Source of the DNA: Bilabrum cf. latius
Lineage: Eukaryota
Assembly: GCA_965178125.1 (NCBI GenBank)
Contig: OZ237740.1
Coordinates: 124,001 to 188,000 of the forward strand
Reading direction: 5' to 3'
DNA length: 64,000 bases
Shown here: in pieces, positions 13,401 through 37,515 of the stretch
How positions within the stretch are numbered: the stretch's first letter is position 1
Layout: each line of letters starts with the position of its first letter
Notes under the pieces: model-generated
Told to the model about the DNA's origin: nothing
Database searches by the model: none
The model's input: only the letters and a program-made list of their open reading frames with translations
Program-made: the position numbers and the translations under genes

Positions 13401-16400
13401 GCTTAAGCTGGAGAGAGGCGACACGATTGGAATGAGCTACATTCCGAGGGACACGGAATCTCCGCCGGGTCGGATCGGGTCGGGCTCACCGCCTCGCGTG
13501 GTGGCAAGTGCGTCGAGCGGCGAGGCAGGGCAGGACACCAGCGGGGGTATTTAGCACGGTGAGTCGGCCAAGTCTCTCGCCAACAGCACGAGCAAGTACT
13601 TCTACAAGTCGCGACAGAACCCCCCCTTCAAGCCGTTCGACGTCGAAGTGCCGGGGCCTGTCCCCATTGTGGCCCGATGGAGGCGGGGCGTGCTCGCTCT
13701 GTTCTCTGCCGGGGAGGTGTCCCGCGCCGGGGTAGAGGAGTCAAACGGGCGCTGGTGGGTAGGGTCCACCTGGGAGGAGGAACAGGCGGAGAAGAAGCGG
13801 AGAGAAGATCAGGAGAAGGCCGACAAGGAGCGCGCCGAACAGGAGCAGGAGCAGGAGCAGGTGGCGAGCGCCGCCGGTGCAGGTTCGGGTGCGCTTAAGG
13901 GAAACTCGCAGGGTGGTCCAGGAGGGGGTGTTATATTGGCAGCGCGCAGCGGTAAATCGACGAGGCAATCGGCGGGCCAAGCAGCCGGCGTGCAATCGGC
14001 TGCGCGCGCTGTGGCAGTCTCGCGAGACCATGGCAGCGGAGGTAGCGGATATGCCGACCGGCATGACTCCATGGACCGAGTGGTCGGGTCTTCCAGAGAA
14101 CAAAGTGGTGAACTGTTGGGCCCGGTACCCCACGCGGCCACCCGAGTCGCTACCCCGAAGCACCGGCACCACGGGGCCCTGGACGCACCCGGGACGGAAG
14201 GTGCGACGCACGGCATGGGCGTGGGTGTCGAGGGCCGGGCGCCAGCTCACGCGACCTCTGACGGAACCGAAGCGCAGTCGGTGGAAAATTCATCGAACGG
14301 CCAGGGCAGTGTGGGCCAGCTTCGAGAATTCCTTCCCGTAGTGGACCACACGCCGTCCAAGCCGCACACCGAGGAGCCTGCCGGCATCGACAACGACGAG
14401 CCACCCATTTGGCCAGTGGACGATCTTGCCGAGTACCTCGAGGACTACAACGCGGTGGTGAGCATGCTGCATCGCGCCGACTGTAACAGCTTCGCCTACC
14501 GCAGGCTGCAGCTGCTGGAAGCGAGGTATGGTCTGCACAGGCAGCTGAACAGGAGGAGGGAGGAGCTCGAGGCGCAGGCCACGCCGCATCGCGACATGTA
14601 CAACACGCGCCGAGTGGACACGCACGTTCACCACAGCGCGTGCATGACGCAGAAACACCTGCTGCGGTTCATTAAGTCGAAGCTCAGGCGCTGCCCCGAC
14701 GACATTGTTCATAAGGACAAGGCCAAGGGAGAGTAGACGCTGGCTCAGGTGTTTGACAGCCTGCGCATGACAGCCTATGACCTTAACATCAACACCATGA
14801 ACATGCACGCGGGGGAGAGGTGAGTTTGGACTGTTTTTATCAGCATGATTGTGTTTGTGAAGTCGCTGGGCCGCGCCTGCAGCTGCATGGATGTCGATGC
14901 CTCCGCATGGTGCGTTCTCGCCGCCACGGTGCACCACCCGTCTCGTTTCCCATGCCCAACCTCTTCCATGCAGCACGATGCGTCGCTTTGACAGATTCAA
15001 CGCCAAGTACAATCCCCTGGGTCAGAGCGTGCTGCGGACGGTGTTCCTCAAGACGCACAACCACATCAGCGGCAGGTATCTAGCAGAGGTGACCAAAGAG
15101 GTCATGGGAGACCTGAGGGAGAACAAGTACTCGCTGGTTGAGTGGAGGCTCAGCGTATATGGCAGGGACAGGCACGAGTGGAATCGGCTGGCTCGCTGGG
15201 TAACCAAGAACAAGCTGGCCAGCCCCGAGATCCGGTGGATGATCCAGGTCCCTCGGCTCTACTCGATTTACCACAAGGCGGGGATGGTGCGCTGCTTCCA
15301 GGACATGATGACGAACCTCTTCGAGCCCTTGTTCCGGGTCACCATTGACCCGAGCTGGGACCCGGAGCTCCACAAGTTTCTGAACCTGGTGACTGGGTTC
15401 GATTCAGTGGACGACGAGAGCAAGCACGAGGGCGGCAGGGACGCGGAAGTACCGCTGCCAGAGGACTGGGACTCGCCGCACGACCCTCCGTACTACTACT
15501 AGATGCACTTCCTCGCGGCCAATCTAAAGTCGCTGAACCTGCTGCGGAGAGCGAGGGGGCTGAGGGAGTTCTCGTTCCGGCCACACTGCGGCGAGGCCGG
15601 TGACATCGACCACCTGGCTGCTTGCCTGCTCACAGCAGAGAGCATCAACCACGGGATCAATCTTCGGCACCTTCCCGCCATGGAGTACGTCTACTACCTG
15701 GCCCAGATTGGACTCAGCGTGTCGCCTCTGTCCAACCACAGGCTGTTTGTGGACTATAGGTCCTCGCCGTTCCTCGGTTTTCTGCGGCGGGGTCACAATG
15801 TGACTCTTAGCTCTGATGACCCGCTGATCCTGCACTTCACGCGGGACTCCCTCCTGGAGGAGTACGTTATCGCCGCGCAAGTGTGGAAACTGAGTCCACC
15901 CGAAGTAGCGGAGATTATGCGCAACTCTCTAAGGATCTCTGGGTACGAGGAGCCTTACAAGCGGCACTGGCAGGGGCCGGCCCACGTGGCCCCCGGCCCA
16001 CGCGGAAACGACATCTTCCGAACGAACGTTCCTTAGGTTCGCTTGCAGTTCCGGTATGAGCTGTTGCAGGCAGAGCGTCAGGTTGTCGCGAAGGGAGCCT
16101 CCCTTGCCATCGGCTGCAGCGAGGACGAGCTCGAGCCCGTGGTGGACGAGGAGGACCACGACCCGTGGCTGGAGGACTTCCAGGACTGCTGTGTGACGAG
16201 TGACCATGTGACGAGTGAGAGCCAGCTAGATCCCCTTGTGCGCGCCTACGAGGACGAGGCTCACAGGCTGGAGCGGAGAACAGCGGCAGGGGCAGGGGCC
16301 CAGCCCGGGTCTGCTCCATCAAGCCTGGACCTGCCCCGGCACCTGAGGCACACCTACGGGGACGAGGGCGGGGTGGTGGTGGAATTGAGCCATGCGGGAC

Positions 16401-16906
16401 GGGACGACCCGGCGTTTTGGGGCTGGCTGCGGCGCCGCGACGTGTTCCGCAAGAGGAGGCGGCAGGAGAGGCTCCTCGAGGCCAAGCTGCGGCGGGAGGT
16501 GACCCCATCGAGCGGGGGCTCGGCCCGGGGAATGCTCCTGGGAGACCCCAGGCTGGGGGGCGTGGGGAACACATCCGACGTAAGCGAGTTCGGGGCCGCA
16601 CAGATGGGTAAGGCGGTTGCAACCGGCTCGCAACCGGGCGCCGCTGCGGGGGGCGACGCAGCGTCTGCCGCTGCCGTTGCAGCCGCGATGAAACTGGATT
16701 CCGAGTCCGGGACGGGCGGGCTGGGCCTGAGCGCATCGGATCTGGGGCCCATTCCCGGGGCCGGGGGGGCGGTTCCTCCTGACGTCACAGAGGAGGATGA
16801 TCCGATCCTGCGGAGGGTGTCCGGAGGAACGCCCCAACAGGCCCGCCGGTCTGCCCAGATCGGCAGCATCCAGCTGAGGCAGGGCCCGCAGGTGCGCGAG
16901 ACGTAA
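10416..16906 (+). CDS. AMPD: AMP deaminase with very long low-complexity N-terminal extension
   Basis: Motifs RVDTHVHHSACM, RFDRFNAKYNP, GFDSVDDESK, FRPHCGEAG, LSSDDPL, GNDIFRTNVP. Introns 10648-10813 and 14820-14973. In-frame TAG at 10584, 11527, 11533, 11647, 13552, 14734, 15500, 16034. Ends TAA 16904-16906. First exon is inferred. Confidence 0.93.
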
Positions 16907-17226
16907 TGAGAATTGGTGTACCAATTGGCCCTTGTGGGACGTGGTGCGGCGAGAGCGCGGACAGGACAGGAGAGGATGGTCTCAGGCGACCCTTCGCCTT
17001 TGAGGCCGGGCGGGGCCAGGTTTTGTCGCGCGCAGCCTCTACTGGTCTGCGGCCGTTGCTCCGCTGCTCGATGAAGTTTGAACGATTTGCAGATGAAAAC
17101 GGATACTGAAAAGGCAGTGATTTTGTGCGGCGGAAAGGAACGCCAGGCGAACCTTCGCGATTCAATAGAACCTTCGTTACAGCGAACTTCGCGAAGGCCG
17201 ACCATTTTCGGCAAGAATCGATTGGG

Positions 17227-19021: not shown

Positions 19022-22000
19022 TCACAGGATGGGCACTTCGTGCTCGGTATCTGAAGCACCTTGGATCTTCTTCACCCGAAGAGTAAGCACTCCATTCTCG
19101 AGTTTGGCTTCCACAGAACCCTCGTCGGCATCCTCCGGCAGCGCAATCGTGCGCTGCACCATGCCGTAGGACCGCTCGTGGTCGGCGCCGCGCCCAGGCA
19201 GCGGCGACGGGACCGATTTAAGTGCACGCAACTATTTCGGGGCTCTGGCCAAATCTGGAACCGCCCATTATCTCGGGTAATTTTGGTACAACGTGATAAT
19301 TAGTCCTATTAAATGATTCAATATGATAGTATCGTGTGATATTGGCTGTGGAAAATCCTGTTAGACATCGTGATGCGCACCAGTGATACCATGAAGGGTC
19401 AGTACTCCCTGTTGCTTGGGTGCGGCTACAGACGTACACAAAGAGGGTTTTTGATCAAAACGCCTAGAATCGCACCCAAATCCAAGTAGCCATCGACTGT
19501 GATATTATCTGGAAAACGTTTTTGGTTAGCGTCGTGCCAGGCCTTGCCAAAGGCAATATCGCACTGCCCTGTCCGGGACATACATCCCCTGATTACAGGG
19601 CTCATAGGAGTTACTGCGCAAAATTGAGCCCGCAAATGTGTATTTGGATTTCATTTACATCCATTGTACCGGTATGCGTTAAATTGATCTCGTGCCGAAC
19701 CGCCGGAACCGCACTGGCGCGGCTGGGCTTCGTTCGAGCCGAACCAAAACGCCCCCTTCGAGCGCATGTCAGCCCGTAGAACCCCGTGACGGCTGAAGAC
19801 GAAACCTCGAGACTACCCTCCCGGACCGCGTTGTCGCCGTTGCTATCTGCAATCCCTGCTCCTGTGCCTGCTCGGCTGCGTCCTGCGCTTCCTGGTCCCC
19901 CAGCTCGTCTTCCTGTTCCTTCAGGTCGTCTTCGCCATCGCTGCCGCAGCGTTCAACCCCTTTCTTGTGCATGCCTGACCGCAACCGTTTGCGTTTACTC
20001 CCTGCCGTGATGCTTGAGACCGCGCTTGGCTCGCCTGCTCCTCCCCCCCGCCCAGCGCTGCTTCTTCAATGTCTGCAGCCCGCCCTTTGCCCCCGCTTTT
20101 GGTCTTGCTCTTGCTCACGCCCTTCCACCCCCATGCCTTCTTGTCAGCGACGACAAATAGAAACGGCTCCAGGGACAGCTCCATCCAGCGTTCTCTACGA
20201 CAGCCTCCAGCAAGTCTCCTCCAGCCAAACCGGAACAACCGCGAGGCCAGGTCCAGGATCTGATGCTCTCCCGCTTCTCTCTGTACTCGATCAGCAAAAT
20301 AGCGTCTCGGGCAGCATTCTTAGGCTCTGGCACCCCACTAGCGAACCGTCTCTCTCGGTTGGCCAGGATCCACAGCACTGCATGCCAACGCTGCACCAAC
20401 GACCCCACCGAGCAGGGCCGCGCAACCCTGGATCGAGCGACCTTCGCCGCTGGTTGGGCGAGGCTCTCCGCCAGAAAGTGAGCATACCGTTGCCATTGCT
20501 CGGCGCAGACGCTGGGCCGCCAGTCGCCTCACCTCGCATTCTGCCTCGCCACGGGCGCAGCACGAGCACCTCAGGTCGCCCTGGATCCCCTGCCACCCGG
20601 CCCGGTGGTCCAGGTCCCGGAGCCGACCGCGCGGTGCCACAGCTCAACAGCTGCTTTCTAGTTCTCACTGCATTATTTAGATGCCTCATACTTTCCTTGG
20701 ATGTGTCGCATAGCTGCAGAACGAGCGATGAAGTAGCCCCGGTCGCACATGCAGAGGCTGCCGCAGATATGCCACCAAGCTATAGATGAACTCCTGCAAG
20801 CGCCAATGCCACATTTTTAGGTGTCCAGCTAGTGATACAGACTTACAGGACACGAAGGTATGCAGAGGTAGGCCTCTTGCCGCGCACGTCCGACAGTGCA
20901 GCGGCCGCCAGAGACACTGCGACTGCGTATGCGACTGCGCATCGAGCCTCCTCAAGGTAATTTTGCTGCTGCTAGACAATTGCCTCCTCCTTCAGCTTAT
21001 ACTAGCGTTGCTACGTCCGTGAATCCAGTTTTAGAGGCTGACAGTCCAAACCTAAGGACCTGTCCGGTTGGCCTACTCGATCTCTTGCCTTGATCGAGGT
21101 GGATTACATCTGCGAAACTCATTGGAACAGAGCCGTAGCACGTAATCTACAAATAATTTAAAGATAGCGCCATCAACGTCGCCAAATATGCATATTTATC
21201 GATCATATCGACCAAAACCTGTCCAGCATACCCCCACCTTTGAAGCCCGTTTGCAAAAATACGTCATCTTGAATTTTGCTCAAAATCCATCGAACGGAAG
21301 GAAACCATACGAAGTTACAGTACACGGACGGAGAAAGTGTGCAATTGGATCGTGGGCACGCCAAGACTCCATGAGGAGACCCTCATTCGGCTCCCACAAT
21401 CAGCACAGCGCCCATATACACTCAAGGAAGACACAAATTGCACGAAACGCTGTATATTCCAATTTAAATCATAGATTTCTACGCAAAACATAGAGAAACC
21501 AATGCGAAAGCTGCCCAGGTACTGATTTCGGCTCAGCCAGGAAGCTCGCTCGGGAGTGGTACACATACTACCCGATGCACCATCCATTTTTCAACATCCG
21601 ACAAAAATAACCCGACGAAATGATAGAATGTACAACTCGGTCTGACATAAAAATGGCGGTTTTTGAGATATTGCCTCAATCTCGAGAAAATCGCGATTGA
21701 GTGCCAGGCGAGCAGCGCCTCACTTTGTCGGACGGGCCAGTGGAGCTACTTGCCGGATCCATGACCTCGGATCCAGCGCACCAATCGAATAAAGTAATCA
21801 ATGCAATCCTATTGACATACTCTCGAAATAATTCATTCAGTGGGAGCAGAGGAAAGTGGCCGCAAAAAATCCGGAACCCTCTCCCGTCGCCGCTGCCTGG
21901 GCGCGGCGCCGACCATCGACGCGGTGAAACACCGGTTTCTGCACCGCCATAGCACCCTCCTTGGGGGCCCCTTTGACCGCGCTGTCCCCGGGCGCCCCGT

Positions 22001-22916
22001 TGCTTCCATTGGCCCCGGCCTCCGCATGCTCACCCTCGCCAGGCAAGTGCTCGCCCCCATCGTGCTCGGGGCTGCTCTCGCAGTGCTCCTCTCGCTGCAC
22101 CGTGATGGTCAGCGAACCGTCCCGAACCTTCACCTTGATCTCCTCCTTCCGTGCGCCGGGCACATCTGCCTTCACCACGTACTTGTCGCCCTCCTCGGCG
22201 ATGTCGAGCGCGATCCGTTGGGGGACCAGAGGCTGTGACGAAGCTGAGGATGAAGAAAGCAGAGAGAACGGGTCCCACCGGCGAGCACTCGTCACAGCCC
22301 ACGGGTCGCCGTCCTCTCCCGGGTCTTGGCCCCGGCCCACCGCAGGTGACGCGTCGTCCTGAAGCTCTGCGTGTCTACGTCCACCTCCGCCCCTGCCACC
22401 GCCTCTACGACGTTGGGGTCGGAAGAAGGAGTCGTCTTCCAGCAGCCAGCGCCCGGGACCGAACCCCGATCCGCGACGGAAGAAAGAAGACGGTCCCCTT
22501 GAGCCCATGGACCAGTCTCCGAAGGCGTGCTGCATGCGCCGGTCCATTTCCCTGTGTGCTTCTTCCATGAACCCTTCCATCTCGCGGAACATGGGCGCGG
22601 CCGGGTGCCACGCGTCGATCCCCCTCCCGGCCCGACGACGGCGCTGGCGGGGCTGAGGGAGTTCTGAGTCCAGATCTGCGCCGCTGATTGCTTCTTTGGA
22701 TCTGTTTGTAGTTTGATGTGCGCGTGTGGTGGGGTCTCGCTCACCAGCAGAGCTCCCTTCGCCGCTGGTTGGAGCAGCCGCTCGAGTTTCCTCGGTTTTC
22801 TGAGCGACGTTCGCGATGATTGGTGTACCCGAAAGGCCCATGGCACCGATTCGGCGTGTCATCTAGCGCCTCAGATGGTTTTGTATGCTTGGTAGTGCGC
22901 GTTGGATTGACTTCAT
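19022..22916 (-). pseudogene. HSP20: Small heat-shock protein (HSP20/alpha-crystallin) gene interrupted by a TIR element
   Basis: The 5' part has LDIAEEGDKYVVKADVPG...FHRV and the 3' part has ERSYGMVQRTIALPEDAD...AKLENGVLTL, ending TGA 19022. Removing 19179-21915 plus one TCG restores FHRVERSYG. Start 22916 (through TAG 22863) is inferred. Confidence 0.9.
19179..21915. mobile_element. 2737-bp TIR DNA transposon, apparently non-autonomous
   Basis: Perfect 34-bp terminal inverted repeats TGGTCGGCGCCGCGCCCAGGCAGCGGCGACGGGA at 19179-19212 and 21882-21915. Flanking 3-bp duplication TCG at 19176-19178 and 21916-21918. No intact transposase ORF recognised inside. Confidence 0.93.
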
Positions 22917-23522
22917 GCCCTTAATTACTATTTGGAAAGTGAGCGGTAGCTGTCTCTGCGACATTCCGTCTCGAATTGTGGCTCCGGACGTATTGATCCG
23001 ATCCTCTGGGCCACGCAATGGCGGAATAACGAGTGGTTTTACAGCTTTATGTAAAAAGTAGGTCAACATCTGACCATACCTCCTTGCATGGGCAACTCGC
23101 GTGTGGCTGGAAGCAGGTGTTCAACGTTCCGATGTGATATTGCAAGTGCATCGGAACTAAGGCTACACATCTTACCAGTCCTACGACTTCATACAACAGA
23201 GCACTTCCATACACCCCTCCAGTCGGTAGCCGAACTAACCGTGGTCCCGATGTCTGCACCGGTGGATGGGGGAAGTTGGTGAGGGCGCTTGGACCAGCAT
23301 CCAGACGACGAAAGTGAAATATGTGGACTAGACAGCCACCAGAAATAAAATACATGCGTATGTTCCAAACTTTGGTATCGATATCACTGCAGCTGCGTCG
23401 CTCACGCCGTGCTCCTCATCAGCGAGCTCGATGCAACCCGGAATGTTGCACCAACTGGATTTCCGGATTTAGTTTCGCACAGCAAACTAGGATCTCAGTC
23501 AAAGGGCCCAGAAATTAAAACT

Positions 23523-24413
23523 ATGGCATCAATTGATACCAAGGTGGCAGATTGGATTGGATTGGATCCCTCTACACTCGTCGAGCCGACACGTTGGAGT
23601 GGTTCAACCATAGGAGTGTCTGCGAAGAGCAACGCTGTCGCCATTCAATGCCGTCCAGGCTCTGACTATTGGCAGAAGACCCACTATGGATTTATTCACG
23701 ATAATGGGCACACCGCCGGCATCAAAGTAGCCACCATTTAGGAAGATCCATCGGGAGATTTAACGTTCGAGCTTTGCTTCCGAGGAAAGTATACCGAGCA
23801 GTTCGACCAGGGCGGCGTCATGCTCCGAAAGTCACCTACAGACTGGATTAAGGCGGGCCTTGAATTCGTCGACGGTAGCCTCCGAGCGTCTGCGGTCGTC
23901 ACTCGCGATGGGTTCAGTGACTGGTCCACGGCCACGCTGCCTGACGAGTGGCAGGAAGGCCTGAAGGAGGGCACGGACAGCTACGCAGTACGGCTTGCAT
24001 GGGAGCGAGCTAGAACCAGCGTGAGGGTCTGGGGCAGGCGCATCTCGGGTGGTTCAAAAGGAGACGAGGGGGCAGGTTCCGGTGCTGCCAAGTCTGGTGC
24101 CAGTGCCTGTGGCGCTCCAGATGACCGCAGTGCTGTGGAGCCAGGAGCCAGGGATTCGGAATCAGAGTGGTCTCTCCTGAGGATCGCTGGGTGCCCCACG
24201 TGGGGTTTTCCTGCCGTTGAGGGTGGCAAAACCGGCAGTGGAAGCGCGCCCGACTGGGAGATCGGGCCCATGTGTTGTGCACCCGCTTCCACCTCCGGCG
24301 AAGAGCAAGCAGCTACGAAAACTACACCAGGTGTGAGTGATACCACCCCTGGATTTGTGTGCGAGTTCAGTGAGATCCGGCACAGGGCAGCTGGGGTGGA
24401 GTCGGAGCATTGA
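23523..24413 (+). CDS. DUF1349 (Ree1-like, concanavalin-fold) protein
   Basis: SDYWQKTHYGFIHDNGH, then TAG 23739, then QFDQGGVM...WIKAGLEFVDG...SAVVT...SDWS and IGPMCCAP, all in one frame. Ends TGA. Confidence 0.85.
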
Positions 24414-24714
24414 GACGAGAAAGGAGAGTGTGTTGAAGGCAAACCTCAATCAACGTGGCATTACCCAACCTCAGCTCCGAATCACATCCAGTCTTCCGGA
24501 TCAAAACACATAGCCTACCAGGAATGGCGGCAAGGTCCATCGGATTTGCTACGATCCATAGGATGACCTCGGCCACCCTGATCGGCTGAATAGCCTGTTC
24601 TCGGGCACAGGGAGTGCTTCAGCGCAAACACGCACACTGCTTGAAGCTTGACCAAACCAAATCGCTGCAGTCGGCTCGTATGCTGAGCGCGCTTCCACTA
24701 GCAGTCAGTTGCGG

Positions 24715-27700
24715 TCACGAGAGCTCGGCAGCGTTCGACTTGCCAGCGCCGAACCCCGGCGAGCTGCTGAAGGTCGATGCACTGCTCTGCCCATCCTTAG
24801 CATGGACCAACTGCATCGGATTGGCTGTCTGGATCGCGACTTGAGGCTAGGCGGACCCGGCAGGGGTGGGAGCTGGCTCGGACGACCTCACAACCAAAAC
24901 GTAGTACCCCGCAGCACCGATCCCTGCCAGTACTACCACAGCCACAAGTGCGCCGACAATTGCACCCACGGGGGAATCGGATGCGCTGTCGCCATCGCCA
25001 TCGCTATCACTACCTGCGCCAGCATTTTTCGCCCTGGGCGTCTGAGAAGTGCCCGTGCAGGCGTCCATCTGAACTCCAGTGTCGTAGTTGTCCGTCACCT
25101 GGACCGTTCCGATCTCGACCGGATCCATCAGAACGACTCTGCCAAGGACAAAGTTTGCGCCAGGAACGTCCGTAAAATCCATAGCAACCTCTCCCAGACC
25201 GCTTTGAAAGCTTGAGGCACCGGCATCGAGTCCAACAGTCGCCTCAGAGCACGAAGTGGAGGCCTGAAGCTCGCGACTCGCTGCCGCGTGTGTCTCCTCA
25301 CCGGGGGCAATTGCGATAGGGTCGCTCAGCTTGCGAGAGTCGAGCAGCTATGACGCGGTTCCAGACAGTCTGCGCCGGCTGCTCAAGCTGACTGTAGGGG
25401 TCGTAAAAGTGTTGGACCAAGGGGTGTTTGTGTTGACTGCTGTCGTGGATACTTGGATGGAGAAGTAGACCTCATAGCCAGAACTCCGGCCCGACATATC
25501 AGACAAGTACACCCACGTGTACCATCCGTTTGCGTTGCTATTAAATCGAGACAGCTGCTTTTCCTAGAGAATCTGAGTGTCAGAAACGGGAAGTGACCAA
25601 TCGTCTTGCCAGCCGTTGAGCAGGACAATGTCTGGGTTGCCGCAGGATGAGTCTCCGGTCCAGGTGAAAAACACGAAAACGACAGACTACGAGGAATCGA
25701 ACTCAAGCTTGGTGACTCGTGCATTTGAAATGCCGTCCTCGCAAGCGGGGTTGTTGCTATCGATGTCGATGTTTGACGATGATGAACTGAAGACCGTCCA
25801 AGATCTGTCCGCAGCTCGGTGTTTCACAGACACCCTGAAGTACACCTCGTCACCCTCATCGGCGATGGTAGAAGCGGGGACATCGACATAGTAGTTGCCA
25901 TTCTACAATGTCGTCAGGCCGGATGAAAAATCGCGCTCGTCTAGCACGTTGATGTCGGTGACCCCAGCAAAATCTCGCGACCTCCAAGCGTTCACTCGCA
26001 CACCGACGACTTCCCGACAAACCACGGCGGAACTTGACGAGAACGAAACACGGACATTGGTTCCCACTTCTCTAACAGACGAGATGCTCGGCCCTTTCCG
26101 CTACCCTCTCTGGCACTTGTAGGGCACGTAGCTGGTCAACCCACTCCGGTCTGACACAGCCGACCCGCTCGAGGTCTCCACTGTAACTGCGAAAGCCACG
26201 TTGTACGTGTCTGCCTGGCTCAGATCTGAAACGGGAATGTTGATGTAGTTATAGTCAGTCGACCTCTACATGACGTACTACCGATTCGAGTATAGTGTGC
26301 CAAGAGTGCCGTAGTAGACGCTAACGAATGCCTGGCTTATGCTTCCGCATGCGGTCGTAGAAGAGTGCGTGAAACGGACCTGAAGTTTCTCATACGGGCC
26401 TCCAGCGGTGTCGTCAATATACCAAATTGCTGACAGGACGCTTGGAGCTGGTGGCTTAGCGCAAGTCGGATCGTTCGCGCTGATGTCGATGCTCGATGAT
26501 GCGGCGCTCCGAGGGGACCACGAAACGCTGTTTGCCTCGTACGCCACGTATACGTAAAAGTATACCTTTTTGCCGTTGTCCTGGATGGCGGATGCGGGTA
26601 CTTCTACGTAGCTCCCAGTACTGTCGCTGCTGAGGCTGGAGGTAAGGTCTCTATCATTCAGGACTTGCGTATCAAGGATACTGCCAGTTCCTCGCCAGGC
26701 ATCCACCTTGACCTTGGCGACACCCCGGCACACGTTGTGCACGCTCTCCGCAAATCGAATACGGACGTTACTGCCCACCTCTGCCACAGACGTGATCCTG
26801 TGGTTTCCTCCATCGATATAGTACGAAGTGCAGCGGTAGGGCATGTTGTTCGTCTCTACCGAGTGATCGGATATCGCGGTGCCGTGAGCCGTTCTGACTG
26901 CGATGCTGTAGTGGACGTCTCGAGCACCAGCTCCAGTCAAGTCATCAACTGGAACGTTGACATACTTGTAGTCGCTTGCAGACTGCACCGAGTACTGCCT
27001 GTTCGTGATGACGTCGGTCCATAGACTCGTGTCTGCTGAGACGAGCACTTGCGTTATGCTACCACATGCGGTGGTAGACGAATGCCGAAATTGGATCTAG
27101 ACGTAGTCCCAGCTGCCCCCGTCAGGATCGTCAATGTACACAACATCAGTGATGGTGGGAGTGCTTGGCTTAGCACATGATTGGCTTGGCGTATCATCGT
27201 CGTCAGCTGCATCGTCAGTTGGATCCGGGGTATCGTCAGTTGGATCCGGGGTATCGTCAGTTGGATCCGGGGTATCATCCCCTAGACTTGGAGTATCGTC
27301 TATTGGGTCGTCCCCGATCGATCCGCTACTGTCCTCGATCTCACGAATGGCGGGCGCTGGATTGCCCGGCGTTCCCACCTTTGGTGCGAGCTGAATGCTC
27401 GGGAAGAGCTCGAGCGGAATGATGTTGTACAGCCTAAGGGTAACCAGCGGCCCAATGTCAACAACCGATCGGCCGGAGCTGACTGCGCCCCCGTCACTCT
27501 GAATCACCGTCAGAGGCCTGTACTCGAACCCCCAGTCTGCGTTCGCGATGGCCGTGCCCGGGTCCTCGTCCCAGCGAAGCCCACTGCACTACAATTCTTT
27601 CCAACCCCCGTTATCAGTCGCGGATTGGCAGCCAATGTTGGCCCAGCAAGTACCACTATCGAAGCAATCTGACACGCAGTAGCAACTCTCCGAGAGTTGC

Positions 27701-29705
27701 AGCGCATTGGAGTAGGTGTACCCGAGCTCAGCCATAGCGAATGCCGAAGCACCGACCGTCAATTTAGTGGGAGTCAGCCGCTGATTGCTGCCACGCGCTG
27801 CCATTGCAACATCCGAGGTGATCACGATAGGGAGAATGCCCACGCTGAAGGTGATAGACGGCAGCCTGACCGGGCTGTGCAGCGGTTCAGTCTCGCCAAC
27901 CCCGGCGTCAGCTTGCATGTCTACCACTAGGTCTGCCTTGATCTCAGCATCGCCACGAAGAAGCACCTTGAACTTGCGCAGCCCATTTCGGAATCCAGTA
28001 GGAACAAAGAGAAGTGTGTCGGTGACCTGCGAATAGCCGGCAATCACCAGACTGAGCGACGCTTCGAGGTAGGCGTACCTGCGCGACAAATTTCACGACG
28101 AGTTAAGGGACGAAAAGGGGTATTACCAATGAAAGCAGCCAGTGTGAGTATCCTATGCATATCAAGAGGGCTCGTAACGGTATGGTTAGAACGACGGTGG
28201 GCACACGATCTCACGTGTCTTCGAAGTACATGACGTCGTTCACCAATTGAATGCGATCCTCGATGGCCCGGTCCTGGTCGAAGTCGTAGTTGATCCCCCA
28301 CTGGAACAGATTCAGCTCGCAGTCGTAGTTGAATTGCGTCGTCATGGTGGATACAGCATAGCCGAGACTCTGCTCGTCGCACATGCCAGACGAAGCACGC
28401 CGAGCCCGGCTCCGTGCCTGCTGCTTGGACTCGTGAAGCGACTCGCGGATGGCGGCCGTGCTTCGCTGTCCTTTCATGAGCCCTGTCCGAAGCGATTGGC
28501 CTGGCTTCTTCTACTTGGCCGATACGTCTGGATCCATGTTGAATTCGAGGTCGAAGGCTTCCGTTGCCATGCTGGGTGGGACGTTCTCCGCGCGCAGCCG
28601 TGTTTCCCACAGCTCGGCTCCCTGCTCGTTGCGCACCTGAATCGGGTCTTCGGTGGCTACGACAAGAACTGTTTGGCCAACAGGTTTCTCGCTGTGCTGC
28701 GGTTTGCTGAGTCCCTGCTCGATGCGTTTGTCCACCTTGCCGGGGCCCTTGTGGCGGAGCACGCCATCCGCCAGCCTCTCGCTGCAGCCCCAGCCCTCCT
28801 CCAGCACGATTGGTTGGTCCACTTGTACTTCAAATGGGGCCGCTGACGTGATGATCATCTCATCCGAATCCGGGGGACACGCCAGTCCTAGAACCTCCCC
28901 CCGGTTCTCCAAGACAATCGCGTCGCTGCGCAGAACAGCATGATACTGAATCCGAGCGGTCCCAACTCCTGGAGCGTGTACCTCGTCAGCATGCAGGTAC
29001 CGTCCGCCGTGCTAACCATTAGACTCCTCTGCTGTCTCAATTGGAAGCGTGCGTCGGCCGATGCGCAGCAGGCCGGACGGCACGATCCGCTCGAACTCTC
29101 TGTGGTGGAATCGAGCCGCCTTGAGACCGTCGGGTCCATCGAATCCATGGGCCTCGATTGCAGCTTGTAGTTCACGGGCATGCCGGTCATGCTTTAAGGC
29201 ACGGCCGTTTTTCGAGTGAACACCGGAATGCACGACACGCACTGAAAGGCTGTTGTTTGCCGCCACCTTGCGGATTCCAGCCAGTGCGTTCTCCAGGTCA
29301 CACGCGCTGTCTAAACCGCACATTTGCACAACAAGATGGCAGCTCGGTGCAAGCGTACACTTTAGAGTCTGCAACATTGTTTGAAATATTGGCATTATGG
29401 CGCAAGAGTTCGGCATTAAAGTCTCTGAGGGGCGAATCAGTTAGGGTGGCAAATTCGAGACAAAACAATCGCACATGCGGCGCACAAGACTGAAACCACA
29501 TAATCCTTACAGGCAAAGTTATCTTTGTAAAAACAGAGCACAGCTACTCAGAAATACCGCACTACTGGCCCATTGGGCTCATAACCACGGCAACCGCCTC
29601 GTGGTAATGCTCGTCGTACCGAGCAGCGTTCGATGGGATCTGAGCCGCTCTAATGCACTAGGTGCTAAGCACAGCGTACACCATTGACAAAAGCATTGGT
29701 CTCAT
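24715..29705 (-). CDS. Large type-I membrane/surface protein with two ~240-aa internal repeats
   Basis: Continuous frame 24715-28078, intron 28214-28079, and a further exon upstream. At least 12 in-frame TAG (24847, 25348, 25564, 25687, 25903, 26101, 26266, 26278, 27097, 27589, 28511, 29012). C-terminal TM helix IVGALVAVVVLAGIGAAGYYVLVV. Signal-peptide-like start at 29705 and the 5' exon structure are uncertain. Confidence 0.75.
27211..27273 (-). repeat. In-frame tandem repeat 3 x 21 bp encoding a DDTPDPT linker
   Basis: ATCGTCAGTTGGATCCGGGGT x3 on the + strand. Confidence 0.95.
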
Positions 29706-29979: not shown

Positions 29980-32900
29980 TCACATCTGACGGTCCGAGCC
30001 GTCGAGGTTGTCGAACAGAGCCTCCCGCGAAATACGCTGCTCCTCAGGGAAGTACTTGAGATTCGGCAGCACCCAGTCCAGGTTGCCCTCCTCCACGCCG
30101 AACCACCCCGCGATACCGTTCCACAGGCCCTCCCATGACAGCGTGGGGATCAATCGACCTCGTCCGATGTTGAGCTCGCTGCCGTCCCGGATATCAGTCG
30201 GGTACTGGCCGTGGATCCTGCCGCCGCGCACGCTTCCTCCCAGCATGAAGGCGTTGCCGCCCCACGCGTGGTCTGTCCCCGCCCCGTTGGACGTCAGTGT
30301 TCTGGCGAACTCGGACGCAGACAAAATCGTGGTGTTCCTCCAAACCCCCTGCAGCTTCATCTCGTCGATGAAGCTGGACAGCGCCTGGTCGATCTGCGGG
30401 AACTTCTCCTCCAGGGTATCGAAGGCGTTAGAATGCGAATCAAACCCACCGATGGTCACGTAGAACACGTCACGCTTCGAGCCAAGGTACCTCCGCGCAG
30501 ACACGATGCGAGCCGCCTGCTCCAGCTGCCTCGCAAAGCTTGTGGGGCGATCCACCTGCGTCGCCTCGAAGTCCTGCATGAGCTCCCCGTGCGAATCGAT
30601 GGACTAGGCCAGCTCCCTGGAGCGCTCCAGTGCGCCGAGCATCTGGCGGGACCATGTGTCTGCGTGCACGCCCGTGGAACCGTTCTTGACAAGAGCCTCG
30701 AGCGCATTGTGAAGGTGGGTCGTCCTCCCGTTCTCGTCAAAGGCAACGACGCCCGACCATGCGTCCACGATATCAGCCGCGCCCTCCTCCGACCCACCCA
30801 CCGCGATGCTGTTCCCGCTGATCGAGTAGGCGTTCACGCTCTCTCCCTGTCTGGCCAGCGCGTCCTTCAGTCGGCCCAGCACGCCCTTGCCGTCAAGCCC
30901 CTGCGCGTGCACGGTCTGCGTGGCCTTGGTCTGTACGTTGTGCGCGAACAGCTGGGGCGGCAGCTGCACGTTCCCGTCGTCCCAGTTCTGCCTGGTCACT
31001 GGCTCCACCATGGGCCCTACGTTGGCGATGAAGGACGCCTGGCCCTCGTCGTACAGCTCCTTGACCAGAGGAAGACGGTAGTGCACTCCAAACGTGTCGC
31101 ACGGCTGGGTCCCACTGGGCACGTCAAGCCGTAGGAGCTGATCCCGAGGCAAGGCGACGTCCCCTCTCACCTGCTGGTACTGGGCGTACATGTCGGTGCC
31201 CTGGCAGTTAGAGTGCGGCACCAGGAGGTTATAGGAGTCCAACCCGCCGGCAAAGAACAGGTACACCAGGGCGTGATAGTCCTCCTCGGGGTGCTCCGCG
31301 CCATGCCCGGTCTCGTCCACGATCGCGTCGGCAGTGATAGAGGTTGCCTCATGCACACCGGCAGCATGGAACTCGGGGGCGGCGGTCATCAGCTGGATGG
31401 CTGCACTCACGCGCTCGTTGTCCGTCCAGTCTCGCTCGGTGTCGTTGGACATGCGCACGTACGTGTCCTCAAGCACCTGCCTCGTGCTCGCGCTCATCCT
31501 GCCGCCGGTGAGCAGCAGGTTCAGCTCGTCCGTCATGGCCCTTGCCTTGCCGCTGAAGGAGGGGCTGTCGCCCTCCGGCATGGGGGCCTGCCAGGACAGA
31601 TGCCCACTCCAGTTGTCCTCGGCTGGGAGCCTGTTCAGCCTGATGCGCCAGCAGCTGATCCCACGGAAGGGCTCCTGCCCCAGTCCCCTCTCGCAGTTTG
31701 TCATGCCGTACTCCACGAGAGACAGCATACCGTTGAGCCAGGTGATGATGGTGGGTGTGTTGAGGATCTGGGCCTCTGGTGCCACCAGTCCCGACTGTGA
31801 CACCTTGCCTGATGGGCTGAAATCCGACTGGAAAAAGTTGAACACGGACGGGCTGAAGTACGGCGACTGCAGGAGGCGGCTCTCGAGCGACCTCATCTCG
31901 AGGTCCATGCCGTCCCTTGACGAGTACTCCATGGCTCGGAGCAGGTGCAGCAGCTTGATGATGGGCTCACGCGCCTTGCCGTAGGTGGGATCCATCTCGA
32001 GTGCGGGGCTGAGCGCCTCCGGGTCCAAAAGCACCGCTGCGATCGTGGCAGCCATGTCACCGTATTGCCCGCTCCCAATCCACTCGTGCTGTCCTCTCTG
32101 GAAAGCCGTGGCTACCCTCTCAACGTATCCCGGGCTTGGGTTGGACGAGGTGAACCGCTTGATCATGAAGTCGGCCACGAAGGGCGGCACGTTCTCGTGC
32201 TCCACGTACAGGTCGAGAGCGGCGTCAGTCTCGTGGTAGGCGTCCCTCGATGCTGGCTCCCAGTGGGCATTGAACTGGGGAGGGTTCCTGAAAGAGAAGG
32301 AGTTGCTGCCGCTACCGATCTGGATGGAGCTCCTGTAGTTGGCCAGGTGCTTCCACTTGTTGCGCCTGACTTGGGCCCAGAAGATCGTCTTCTCGTCGTA
32401 CATGCCGCCGGTGCTGTTCACGTGGAAGTAGACCTTAGCCCTGTCGTACTTCATTAGGTCGTTGCACGCCTTGGTAGTGCACATTGTGTACGTGCCTTCA
32501 TCGAAGGAAGCCGGGTCGGGGGCGCCGATGGTTAGAACGTCGGTGATGTCCGACATGTTCCTCGGGGTCTGCGTGATGACAGCCTCGGTCACCACCGTGG
32601 CGTTGCAAAGGAGAAGCGTCTCCTCGTTGACGTCGCCCGTGGAGGGCACAGCACCGGTATCGTCGCTAGACGGCGTCATTGGCTCGCAGGCCTCCGCGGG
32701 AAAGTGACCGTCTAGGGGCTTGGGCGCGCTGCCATCCCAAAGCACCCGGAATGGGAACTTGTCGGCGCCCTTCTTGGTTCTGACCTGCGCCCGGTCTTCC
32801 CTTTCAGTGTGCTTGAAGCGGTGGATGGCAGAGACACGGCCGTCTGGATGCACCTGCGCCTGCACGAAGCAGGTGCCGGTGCCCCACTGCTGCTGGAGGT

Positions 32901-35900
32901 TCCTGTTCCCGCAGTCCCAGCGGGGGTCCCAGTGGTCGCAGATGTACTTGCCCTCGGCCGCGCACCGCGCCTCGGCGGTTGCGTACGACACGCGCTCTCC
33001 CGCGTACCCCTTGCAGGGAACAGTGGCGCGCCATGGGTTGCCGTGCTCGCAGCAGCCGCCGCCCGCAGCAGACAGCCGCTCGTCGATGCAGAAGCCGTTC
33101 CACCGCCAGCCCGTGCTGGCGGGCTTCTACCTGCCCTCCTCCACGAAGGCAAACTCCACGCATGGCACCCGCTCGTACTCGTAGTACACGGGCGACTGGT
33201 GCTAACCGCGATCGATCTTGATCACACGCACCGTTTCCACGTCGCACTCGATGCCGTGGCACTCCAAGTTGGAATTGATCGTCACCACCGAGTCCAGCAT
33301 GCTCTTGCAGGACGCCGCTGTGCTCCCCTGTTCGCCGCAGATAGCGCCGTGAAGCTGTGACTCGCCCCGGACTGGGGTGAAGTAGTCGAAATTCTTGGTG
33401 TTGCCGTGATCCGTCTGCAGCTTGGGGGTCGGATCCTCGCCCAGGTAGTGGTACCTGGCACCTTTTCGGAGGAAATGGAGCTTGGGCAGGCTCCAGCACG
33501 CGGGGTAGGAATCCCCGATGTGGCGCCCATGCAGTGCCAGCTTAGGGAAGGAGTCGCGCCACGTGGGCTGCACCCACAGCGGGTCGATGTGGTTGTAGCT
33601 GTTGTCGCCACCGGGATTCTCGATGTTGCCTCTGGCGGGCTGCTGGTCGAACCCCGTCCAGACGCGGGACAGCTCGAGCACGTCGTCGTTTGTGTACGTG
33701 GGAATAGGTTCTCCGTTGGAGTCGAGCTTCTGGGTACCGTTCATGTGCAGCTCCCACAGTCCGATGGTGAAGAGCTACATGATCTCCCTGGCGTAGTTCT
33801 CGTCGGGGTACAGCTCCTTGCGCGGCCAGATGTACTTGGAGTAGTGCAGCGATCGAGTCTCGAGGAAAGTCAGCATGCGGGCCATGGCGGGGCTGTAGGA
33901 CACCTCCTTGACGATGTCGCGGTAGCTGCCGAAGGCGTTCCGCACGAAGATGTCGTAGTACGTCAGGAAGATCTCCATCTCGTTCTGCCTAGAGATGCCC
34001 TCCTGCGACACCACAAAGATCTGCGCAAGCGCCCAGGCCACCCTCTGCCTCAGCTGATCGGGGGCGTCCATGACTGTGTTCAGCCAAGCGGTGGACTTGG
34101 ACTGACTGCCACGCCTGCCCCTCACGTATTGGTCCTCCTCCTGGTTGTTGATGTCGTTGTTCCCTGCAATTCCCATCACGTACCGCATGCCCTCCGCGGG
34201 TTCATTCGCCACCTCGCCTGGAGACCCGCAGAACTCCTGCAGGGGTGCCTGGTTGGAGCCAGTGGAGGCCCCCGAGCCTATGGCTGTGCCCAGGGCGTCG
34301 TTGACGAGCTCCCGAGGCAGGTCTGCAAAATCAACGTTCTGGTTGCGCCTTCCAATGTATGTGTGCTTGCTCTCGTGGCCCCTCCACCGACTCATCATGT
34401 GCCAACTAGGATAGGTGAGCGAGGCGGAGCCAGACATGGCGAACTTGGCGATGGGGTTAGGGCGGTTACCGTTGAATGCCTCGTCGTTGCCCTGGTGCAG
34501 CGTGGTCCAGGCCGTGAAATCGTACACGGACAGCTCGTTGTGGTGGACGTGCTGCCAGCAGGTCACCACGCCGGTCCCCGTAGAGTTGTCCGTCACCAGG
34601 ATCTGCACACCCTTGCTGGCAGCCGTGCACTCGTCGTCCTTGGATCGGATGTCGATGACGTCAGCGTCATCGTCGGCCTCTAGAATCAGCTCGGAGAGCC
34701 AGTCGTGGGTTCCCTGATCGATCGCGGCAGAGCTGCCCTCGCTGGGCTGAGCAGCTTGAGGGCATTGGTCTCCTGCCCCCACGCGCCTCCACCTGCTGGT
34801 GGTATCGTCGCACGGCGGGTCCTCACCGTCCAGCCTCAGGCCGGTGACGTAGTGCACGTGCCTGCCAACGTGCTCGTAGAACGCCTTGATGGTGTCGTCA
34901 TCAAGCTGTACGGTCCGACTGGGATACATACGAGAGGCGCACCGCTGCAGGCCCACCTTGCACGAGTGCTCGTTCAGGAACGTCCTCGGCACCACCACGC
35001 ACTGCTCCACGCCCCGTATGACGTCACTCGACGGTTCACTGACGTCATTGTCAATCAGGCGCAGGCGTGACTCGTGCAGCAGCCACTCGGAAGGCGCCCC
35101 GTTGGATCCGCTCGAGGTTCTGAGAAAGGCGGGGCCGGTGGGAGGCGCATCGCACGAGCTACCTTGGACGGCGGGAAGATAGAAGGCGTCCACAGCAGGT
35201 GCGGCCACAGGCACAACCTCTGCATTTGTCATGACAAGCCGATTCCCCACAGCAGCCTGCAGCTCGCTCGTGGGGAAATGTACCTGCGGATTGTCCATGC
35301 GGCCCATGCAGTCCGTACCGAACTCGATCTCACCACCCACCTTCTGCTCCACGTCGCAGATGGCCCACGGTGCGTCACCAGCCATGGAATCTGCGGTCCA
35401 ATTGGCACCCATGTACGTCCGCGGCATGCCGTCCACCGTCAGGATGCCATCACTCGTCACATCGAGCTTCTAGCCCTGGTCATCGATCGACAGAGCAAAC
35501 CTCCTCCACCGTGACTCGGCCTGGCAGGGGCCACGCACCCCGCCCGAGTCGATCGGGCGAAGGTTCCTTGGGTTCGCTCGCTTGCGGTAGTACGCCCGGT
35601 GGAGCGTGGGAGGCACCTCATGCATCTGGTCATAGACCCACCCGGATGCGGTGCGGGCGAATTCCTCGGTGGGGTTCGGGGTGGGGTTGGGGCCTGGGGT
35701 AGGGAAAGCGTCCAGCTCTGCCCTAGTGGTTCCGAAGGTTGCAGCCTGCAGAAATCGGGCGGCGCGGACCTCATGGGGAACCTGGTCCGGCGAGAGCACC
35801 GCAGTGGACTGCACCCAGTAGGCAACGCCTCCACCCTCGGCCCCGTCCTGCAGCGCGCGGCGCCGGCTCTCGCTCGACGCGGTTCCGCTGGCTGCGTCCT

Positions 35901-37047
35901 CGGGGAACACAACGGAGCACAGGCCCAGCCCGCGGGGATCCACGGCCGGGGAACAGTTGAAGGACGCCATCAGGGGGGGCTGGGGCTCCCAGTCCCTTCC
36001 GTCGTAGGACCTTCCCGCGGGGACGGGCGCCTGGGGGGTTGTCCCCGAGGTGGGGTCGGAGCCCCGGGGCGTTCGGAACATGCGGATGAGCTGGCCGGGG
36101 CTGGAGCGCGCCAGCAGGATGGCCTCGCGTGACGAGTGCCCGGGCAGGGGCAGCATCTGGGGCTGCCCTCCCGGCACGGGGGCCGCGTAGGGCGCCGGAG
36201 ACGGGGACACGCTCGGAGTAGGCGAGGCGGAAGGCGTGGATGAGGGGGTGGGGGAGGGGGCTCCTGGCACCGCCTTAGCCTCCACCTTGCCCACCCCTGT
36301 CAGCGCGCTGCCGAGGGGGCTCTCCTCCCCTCCCGCGTCGCGCAGGGCGCCCAGCAAGCCACCGCTCTCGGCTGCTTCCTGCAGGGCTTGTTCGACTGTG
36401 GCCGCCACGGCTGCTTCCGGTTCCTCTGGCATGAAGCTGGGTCCAAGCCGCAGGGCAAACGTGACCTCGAGAGGTTCAGGCGCATTGGGATCGGCGGCAC
36501 CCTCCCCCGTTGTTCCCTGGTCCAGCCCGGAGTCCTCGAGGGAGGTCGGCGCCACGCCCAGTACTTGGCAGGAACCCGCCGGAAGCCCCGCCGCCTGTTC
36601 CACTCCCTCGCAGAAATGCCTGGCCGCCTCGGAATCGGGGGTGAATTCGTTTTCTTCTAGTCCTTGTAGTACGATGGAGCCGTCTACTACGACGGACTCG
36701 TTGGTGCCGCGTGGTGGGCCGGCTGAGAGGCTGCCCGAGCTGTCGTCGGTGCTCCCAGACAGCTGCCACACCACGATGCCAACAACCGCACCGATCACAA
36801 CCACGGCAATTGCAATAGCAATGTAGAGAGTACTGCCGCATCCGCGGGAGGCCACCGGCACAGGGTGCCCTCCTTTTCCTTTCGAAGACGCGTCGCCCGT
36901 GCTCGCGAACCCGGATGCTCCTACCATTTGCGGTCCGCCAGTTCCTTTCTTGGTCATGTAGCGCTCGCTCGCTACGGCTAGTTTGTTCTCATGGACGAAG
37001 CTTCCATCTTGCGCGAGTCGAGGCGCTCCCGATGTTGTGGTCTGCAT
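29980..37047 (-). CDS. DUF1800-DUF1501 fusion protein with N-terminal TM anchor (~2355 aa, no intron needed)
   Basis: DUF1800 motifs: ARFLQAATFG, DQLRQRVAWALAQIFVVS, PDENYAREIM*LFTIGL, GKAREPIIK. DUF1501 motifs: LVYLFFAGGLDSYNLLVP, GGFDSH, SEFARTL...GTDHAWGG. In-frame TAG at 35470, 33775, 33202, 33127, 30604. Ends TGA 29980. Confidence 0.88.
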
Positions 37048-37515
37048 CACTCCTCTTGTTCGAGTTGACACTGCTCTCGTGTGTAGCTGTGCGACAGGGC
37101 AAGGCAAGGCAACAAACGAGTCCAAAACTAGGCGGATATTATCTGTAATAGTAGTATAGTGCTAATTCGCGCAGAATTTTATAAATCCGGTGAAGTAGTA
37201 TGCAAGGTGCATGGAGAAAGAACGGCACAGTGGCAGAATCTTAAATGCAACGATTCTGCTGTCGTTGGATCCAAGTAACGGCGACGTGGAGCAGACCTGT
37301 GCTGCATCTTACTTAAATAAAGTCCTATAGCAGTTCAGGCCAGGCGCTCCGAAACGAGGGAGCTGCCACTGCCGTCAGTTTGTGACGCGGCGCGTGCACT
37401 GTAGCCCAGTTGGTCGCAATACGCTGAGCGAACACCAGCGAACCTTCGGTGCGACGGCAGAACGGCACCGGTTCGTTCATTTTGAGACAGTCACACGGAT
37501 AACCAAGCAAGTTTG

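Follow-up and report, generated by a model that had tools for sequence, protein, structure and literature searches.

In-frame TAG most probably encodes glutamine in a spliced, GC-rich eukaryotic DNA segment of likely stramenopile origin

A long frame on the minus strand of contig OZ237740.1 (assembly GCA_965178125.1, Bilabrum cf. latius) is crossed by ten TAG codons, and it raises the question of whether these triplets are stops or stand for an amino acid and, if so, for which one. We analysed this frame, hereafter the target gene, together with the whole stretch of 64,000 nucleotides in which it lies (positions 124,001 to 188,000 of the contig; hereafter the window, whose own numbering is used below). 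The explanation we favour is that the window is nuclear DNA of a GC-rich eukaryote, likely a stramenopile, in which UAG is read as glutamine (Gln) while UAA and UGA are stops, and that the target gene is intact and transcribed. We put the probability of this joint reading at about 0.93. The target frame, its internal repeat and the TAGs within the repeat are as follows:

24715..28089, minus strand: membrane-protein open frame of 1124 codons, with ten in-frame TAG and no TAA, ending in TGA at 24715-24717.
26461..27168, minus strand: repeat copy 1, residues 308-543, with two predicted FN3-like beta-sandwich domains.
25741..26454, minus strand: repeat copy 2, residues 546-783, 42% identical to copy 1.
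27097..27099, minus strand: TAG at residue 331 of copy 1, opposite CAG 26380-26382 (residue 570, copy 2).
26278..26280, minus strand: TAG at residue 604 of copy 2, opposite CAG 26995-26997 (residue 365); the database protein P0122 ends right before it.
26266..26268, minus strand: TAG at residue 608 of copy 2, opposite CAG 26983-26985 (residue 369).
26101..26103, minus strand: TAG at residue 663 of copy 2, opposite TAT (Tyr, residue 424; 26818).
25903..25905, minus strand: TAG at residue 729 of copy 2, opposite AGT (Ser, residue 490; 26620).

A preliminary description of this gene had proposed that it contains two repeat copies of about 240 residues in which three TAGs pair with CAG in the other copy, which would make the two codons synonyms. 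Self-alignment of the translation (Smith-Waterman, BLOSUM62, TAG masked as X) bears out the two copies: residues 308-543 and 546-783 align with a score of 479, compared with 45.6 +/- 7.1 (maximum 86) in 200 shuffles, with 234 residue pairs and identity at 101 of 240 columns. An independent alignment with MAFFT gave the same register and the same TAG pairings. The six codon positions named in that description and the peptide strings quoted there all match the frame translation, and no residue other than Gln stands opposite the three TAGs it named. All three pairs thus stand, but the proper tally is three of five, as the two TAGs of copy 2 with Tyr and Ser partners had been left out.

How much weight can this repeat carry? 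Gln codons make up 10 of the 471 non-TAG codons of the region, and the probability that at least three of five TAGs fall opposite Gln by chance is P = 9e-5. The BLOSUM62 likelihood of these partners (Q three times, Y and S once each) favours Gln over Glu, the next best residue, by 3.8 natural-log units, or about 45-fold. When all five FN3-like domains of the protein are aligned with one another, TAG801, TAG842 and TAG663 face G/G, N/D and D, respectively, in an alignment too weak for use. Taken by itself, the internal repeat is moderately strong evidence that TAG means Gln; since no single-step nonsense change is commoner than CAG to TAG, a pseudogene in decay could show the same pattern. The synonymy of TAG and CAG is supported all the same, and it is evidence from outside the repeat that settles it.

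That evidence begins with the coding capacity of the window as a whole. With TAG counted as a sense codon, stop-to-stop frames of at least 100 residues drop in number from 66 (mean 284 residues) to 40 (mean 508 residues); counting TAA as sense brings no such lengthening. Twenty gene frames comprising 15,807 codons hold 66 in-frame TAG beside 449 CAG and 118 CAA, and no TAA, totals which are slightly inflated in that the segment 39100-39764 is out of frame and adds one TAG, three CAG, two CAA and all four in-frame TGA. The target frame alone has 20 CAG and 11 CAA beside its 10 TAG. All long genes of the window carry in-frame TAG, and housekeeping genes are no exception; the genes for AMP deaminase (AMPD) and for a DUF1800-DUF1501 fusion protein are two examples. 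The sites in these two genes on which the argument turns are:

33775..33777, minus strand: TAG in the DUF1800 motif YAREIM[TAG]LFTIGL, inside the 2443-codon DUF1800-DUF1501 frame (29980-37308).
15500..15502, plus strand: TAG in the AMP deaminase core, PPYYY[TAG]MHF; CAG in a sister species (L001/L002), Q in database protein P0002.
16034..16036, plus strand: TAG in AMP deaminase, TNVP[TAG]VRLQF; Q in a same-species strain (P0016), TAG in the sister species.
14818..14971, plus strand: GT..AG intron of AMP deaminase, 154 nucleotides, removed in contigs of the sequencing runs X5 and X7.
16904..16906, plus strand: AMP deaminase stop TAA; TGA at the aligned position of the sister species.

The strongest single site for Gln is the TAG at 33775-33777. 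Its column in the DUF1800 motif was tabulated in the 146 homologues of less than 90% identity that align at the motif among the best 150 of 5548 representatives, and it is Q in 144 of them and E in the other two; in homologues of at least 1300 residues it is Q in 188 of 188. The four other aligned TAGs of this protein fall in variable or gapped columns and are uninformative, as are those of the bleomycin hydrolase, EML and DUF1349 genes, which lie outside the aligned columns or in an insertion when compared with PDB entries. Elsewhere, Notum has Q opposite a TAG of the pectinacetylesterase (PAE)-family gene, the TAG at AMPD residue 1316 is matched by Q in human AMPD2, and P0005 has Q in the column of TAG 15500.

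Close relatives of the AMP deaminase allow the same question to be put codon by codon. P0016 is 100% identical over the shared part, which starts just past TAG 15500, and has Q at 16034, while P0002 is 95% identical, has Q at 15500 and ends just before 16034. The sister species is represented by three metagenome loci (L001-L003) that hold AMPD and MA3 genes, and its AMPD core is 94% identical to that of the window in protein and only ~74% in DNA, which indicates strong purifying selection. Comparison of the true frames of the two species yields ten non-redundant pairs that involve a TAG: four of these are TAG/CAG (at 15500, 16856, 18246 and 18453) and one is TAG/TAG (at 16034). Across all 29 TAG partners that we tabulated, Gln leads Glu, the next residue, by 14.7 natural-log units and Tyr by 15.4.

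The other two stop codons appear to have kept their function. At the end of the AMP deaminase gene, the TAA of the window is aligned with the TGA of the sister species, and TAA and TGA therefore remain stops. The gene ends with the tandem stop TAA-TGA (16904-16909, plus strand). Were TAA also a Gln codon, the CAA/CAG ratio would predict about 17 of them in frame; none is observed, a zero that is partly by construction.

The gene content of the window shows what kind of DNA this is. With TAG read through, Pfam identifies a CDC5-type Myb protein, AMP deaminase, MA3, bleomycin hydrolase, EML beta-propellers, ankyrin, CH_2, pectinacetylesterase/Notum and the 2443-codon DUF1800-DUF1501 fusion, in a window of 61% GC. 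GT..AG segments are removed at 10647/10814, 14817/14972, 17367/17469 and, on the minus strand, 29368/29511 in contigs of the public runs X5 and X7, and the contigs of runs X1 and X6 are collinear with the DNA, without splice joints. X5 and X7 are called RNA solely because their contigs are spliced; no RNA run is on record. The eukaryotic gene families and the GT..AG introns together identify the window as spliced eukaryotic nuclear DNA.

Its source lineage is most likely a stramenopile, judging from two of its proteins, whose closest matches are fragmentary metagenome sequences. Among named matches of the AMP deaminase, the best are those of the stramenopiles Aphanomyces, Tribonema, Phytophthora and Rhizochromulina at 54-57% identity; fungi follow closely. 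In a quick tree of the window protein and 35 of the 120 listed matches (19 named, 16 unnamed), the window and P0002 lie within a clade that holds all named stramenopiles and has a Shimodaira-Hasegawa-like approximate likelihood-ratio test (SH-aLRT) support of 95, inside a subclade of otherwise purely unnamed sequences; alveolates, rhizarians and haptophytes are absent from the tree, and its stem branch is long. Of the 120 listed matches of the DUF1800-DUF1501 protein, 12 are legibly named: Triparma, Epithemia (three), Cyclotella, Nitzschia (two), Fragilaria, Bolidomonas, Pteridomonas, Coscinodiscus and Hondaea. A lineage check confirms Triparma and Hondaea as stramenopiles, and the others (Epithemia, Cyclotella, Nitzschia, Fragilaria, Bolidomonas, Pteridomonas and Coscinodiscus) we take to be stramenopiles as well.

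The favoured explanation would work as follows. The ten in-frame TAGs of the target would be ordinary Gln codons in a membrane protein of five domains (A-B-A-B-B'). TAG and CAG, one transition apart, would change into each other as synonyms, and at three conserved Gln positions of an old duplication the two copies accordingly differ, one having TAG and the other CAG. By analogy with Iotanema spirale (excerpts of PMC5304391), decoding would be by a tRNA-Gln(CUA) derived from tRNA-Gln(CUG) and unable to pair with UAA, and the release factor eRF1 would have weakened recognition of UAG.

The proportion of TAG among Gln codons varies from gene to gene. Low-complexity proteins that evolve fast have a high share (target, 10 of 41; 2712-6230, 9 of 39; 54801-59648, 14 of 72) and conserved genes a low one (DUF1800-DUF1501, 6 of 109; CDC5, 1 of 50; EML, 1 of 30), and TAG may be a disfavoured Gln synonym.

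Several observations weigh against the reading of TAG as Gln in an intact, transcribed gene. In the repeat, two of the five TAGs have Tyr and Ser as partners, in stretches of poor conservation. Of the ten sister-species pairs, five have a residue other than Gln (Thr twice, Glu, Leu and Lys), and most of these lie in unconserved tails. In the AMP deaminase, the partner of TAG 15500 is Tyr in the solved human and Arabidopsis enzymes and Trp in P0004 and P0006; that of TAG 16034 is Asp or His in solved AMPDs, and that of the TAG at residue 1316 is Leu in Arabidopsis. The machinery of decoding is not at hand in this DNA: ARAGORN finds no tRNA gene in the window or in L001-L003, and the eRF1 gene is not within the 64-kb window; a search of Rfam at gathering thresholds also gave no matches. 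As to transcription, the X5 run is classified 'RNA? (probably DNA)'. Among the RNA pieces listed, none lies over the focal TAGs at 26266-27099, where the summed depth of X5 is non-zero, and no X5 or X7 contig among them lies over 25800-28089.

With these points in mind, five other explanations can be weighed. The one that survives best is a context-dependent, ambiguous code of the kind known from Condylostoma or karyorelict ciliates, in which UAG would be Gln within genes and also the terminator of some. Within only 64 kb, occasional UAG stops could escape notice, and the ends of our frames were set by TAA and TGA only, such that any gene ending in TAG would look slightly longer; TAG is indeed found within some 40 codons of several frame ends, for example at residue 1081 of 1124 in the target and 1114 of 1151 in CDC5. 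However, the sister species has a TAG in place of the window's CAG 16856, 16 codons ahead of the AMPD stop, and its protein runs on to the same aligned stop, meaning that a TAG near the 3' end is still sense. We consider a dual role of UAG unlikely.

TAG could also be a sense codon for another residue: Tyr, Glu, Leu, Ser, Lys or pyrrolysine. Nuclear codes with UAG as Leu or as Ser exist (excerpts of PMC11687900), and the Tyr opposite TAG 15500 in two solved AMPDs, like the TAT opposite TAG 26101, would suit such a code. Yet the DUF1800 motif column is Gln in every one of the 188 long homologues, Gln is ahead of Glu, Tyr and His by 14.7 to 16.5 natural-log units over the 29 observations, and in conserved contexts close relatives swap TAG for CAG and never for a Tyr, Leu or Ser codon. 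Any residue other than Gln is very improbable.

If the target were instead a decaying pseudogene, its TAGs would be premature stops that arose from CAG by transition. CAG and TAG are a single transition apart, TAG makes up 49% of the weighted one-step nonsense paths in the target, and the gene belongs to no Pfam family and has one database relative only (search range 179-573 residues). Decay would nevertheless be expected to leave a mixture of lesions. All ten in-frame stops of the target are TAG (P = 8e-4 under mutational paths), with no mix of stop types; the single TGA is the terminal one, and no frameshift interrupts the 1124 codons. That one relative, P0122, is a fragment of a 90%-identical target orthologue which stops exactly before TAG604, and this TAG is thus conserved in the orthologue. 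The presence of in-frame TAG in all long genes of the window, housekeeping genes among them, equally argues against decay of a single gene, as does a contig of X5, a run that holds spliced transcripts, which covers the 3' part of the target (record 14, 24602-25799, spanning TAGs 24847, 25348, 25564 and 25687). We regard the pseudogene as barely credible.

No supporting point was found for the possibility that the code is standard and U-to-C editing of the mRNA turns TAG into CAG. The spliced contigs of X5 and X7 keep TAG, with no other letter, at 13552, 14734, 15500, 16034 and 17907, and one of them (X5 record 10) spans the first four of these sites with no differences from the DNA; editing can be given hardly any credence. 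Finally, although recoding of TAG to Gln is best known from phages (excerpts of PMC9523058), the eukaryotic gene families, the GT..AG introns and the lack of any relative in viral contigs (for the repeat region) or in prokaryotic genome contigs (for AMPD) leave a TAG-recoded phage or prokaryote using table 15, as in gut phages, with next to no probability.

With UAG taken as Gln, the target gene can be described as a whole. Three further features complete its frame:

27211..27276, minus strand: perfect 21-nucleotide tandem repeat, 3.1 copies, encoding an acidic DDTPDPT linker ahead of copy 1.
25375..25734, minus strand: fifth domain, of B type and more divergent, residues 786-905, carrying TAG801 and TAG842.
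24913..24969, minus strand: the sole strong hydrophobic helix, residues 1041-1059 (Kyte-Doolittle mean 2.59), followed by a tail of 65 residues.

The true start of the protein is probably Met58 (27916-27918) or lies in an upstream exon. Hydropathy analysis shows a weaker hydrophobic stretch after Met58, at residues 79-97, which could be a signal peptide, and the helix at residues 1041-1059 is read as a predicted membrane anchor. The layout would accordingly run from a possible signal peptide through a Cys-rich N-terminal part and the linker to domains A-B-A-B-B', the helix and a short tail. A search of Pfam returned no family for the protein and no FN3 match. An AlphaFold2 model of the 242-residue unit, built from a three-row alignment, is all-beta with two domains (predicted local distance difference test score, pLDDT, 66; predicted template modelling score, pTM, 0.56). 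Its best PDB matches by Foldseek are tandem FN3 pairs, those of NCAM (2vkw_B, E = 2.7e-6), titin and neogenin, at template modelling scores (TM-scores) of only 0.25-0.39. The target would share with such proteins (the FN3 pairs of NCAM, neogenin and titin) two predicted beta-sandwiches and a single C-terminal anchor. It differs from FN3 tandem proteins in having no membership in the sequence family, the model being moderately confident, and its domains each have conserved Cys residues, which are atypical for FN3. The preliminary description had called the product a surface protein, a label that the strong C-terminal transmembrane helix and the FN3-like domains, both predicted, make plausible; a membrane-anchored surface or adhesion protein is a reasonable expectation from the model.

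Downstream of the target lies the convergent DUF1349 gene on the plus strand, and the X5 contigs of this gene (23498-24603) and of the target (24602-25799, minus strand) end together at 24602-24603. The 3' ends of the two genes appear to abut, with untranslated regions of ~110-190 nucleotides.

Other genes of the window have features of their own. At 10789-14823 (plus strand), the AMP deaminase gene has, ahead of its conserved domain, a low-complexity N-terminal extension of ~1200 codons that holds four of the gene's five TAGs; the 154-nucleotide intron splits the catalytic domain. The AMP deaminase of a different, unrelated organism from metagenomes, 42% identical and with a GC fraction of 0.47 (L012 and L013, matches 3986-5270 and 3570-4854), has one in-frame TAG, opposite Ala, within a tblastn segment of 392 residues. 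Either a short in-frame intron or another organism that reads TAG as sense could account for it. The DUF1800-DUF1501 frame (29980-37308, minus strand) has a transmembrane N-terminal part fused ahead of both domains. Its homologues number in the hundreds, measure 1300-4200 residues and, wherever legibly named, are stramenopile, making this a large uncharacterised eukaryotic family with prokaryote-type DUF domains. The bleomycin-hydrolase (Peptidase C1-like) gene (37989-39764, plus strand) has at least three exons, and a part of its first frame between residues 209 and 288, which does not align with homologues, is probably an in-frame intron. Between the MA3 and HSP20-domain genes, at 19132-22451, the summed contig depth of X1 rises from ~13-18 to 70-180, and variant letters, small indels and loose ends cluster. 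This segment looks like a multi-copy or polymorphic element, and the assembly may have collapsed a repeat there.

What would such a code mean? Tentatively, and at somewhat short of even odds, we propose that a GC-rich stramenopile lineage of at least two species has reassigned UAG alone to Gln, as an independent origin and the first change of a stramenopile nuclear code; no report of such a change was found in the full-text literature searched, a limited library. If true, this would be an independent origin, at 61% GC, of a code in which UAG and UAA are uncoupled. At that GC content, loss of stop codons under AT pressure cannot be the driver. Every such origin is a test of how a release factor recognising all three stops can give one of them up. 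Public data already include genomic DNA, a diverged sister species and transcript contigs, and the changes in tRNA and eRF1 should consequently be directly recoverable. There is also a practical side: gene callers that use the standard code cut the proteins of this organism at each TAG, and metagenome genes are mis-annotated wherever it is present. Database entries are only fragments (for example P0016, P0122, P0124, P0126 and P0175).

Reassignment of UAG alone to Gln is a rare, already known type of code, found here in a new lineage. Nuclear codes in which UAG and UAA differ in meaning are rare, PMC11687900 naming Iotanema, a rhizarian (UAG as Leu), Scotinosphaera (UAG as Ser) and a few ciliate lineages; UAG alone is Gln in Iotanema spirale, Protocruzia tuzeti and two phyllopharyngean ciliate lineages (excerpts of PMC11687900 and PMC5304391). 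The fornicate Iotanema spirale (Panek et al. 2017, PMC5304391) is alike in that UAG alone is Gln while UAA is a stop, and the same mechanism is expected there, a tRNA-Gln(CUA) together with an altered eRF1. It is unrelated, however, being an anaerobic metamonad, whereas the window comes from a GC-rich and apparently stramenopile lineage. The kinds of evidence differ too: transcriptomes for Iotanema (same excerpts), and for the window genomic DNA, a sister species and spliced contigs, without eRF1 or tRNA. The UAG-only codes of ciliates (Protocruzia tuzeti and phyllopharyngeans; excerpts of McGowan et al. 2024, PMC11687900) share the codon, the residue and an unreassigned UAA. Nothing in the window is ciliate-like, given its 61% GC and named best matches among stramenopiles, and if the stramenopile placement holds, its code would have an origin independent of theirs.

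Phages that use table 15, such as crAss-like phages, have the same formal table, with TAG as Gln (excerpts of PMC9523058). They are served by bacterial ribosomes and the release factors RF1 and RF2, whereas the window belongs to a spliced eukaryotic nuclear genome with termination by eRF1. Codes in which UAR is Gln (table 6) are used by many ciliates, ulvophyte green algae, Hexamita, Streblomastix and Amoeboaphelidium. These are like the code of the window in turning a stop into Gln by a one-step change of anticodon. In table 6, however, UAA is Gln as well, whereas the window has no in-frame TAA and places a TAA where its sister species stops at TGA.

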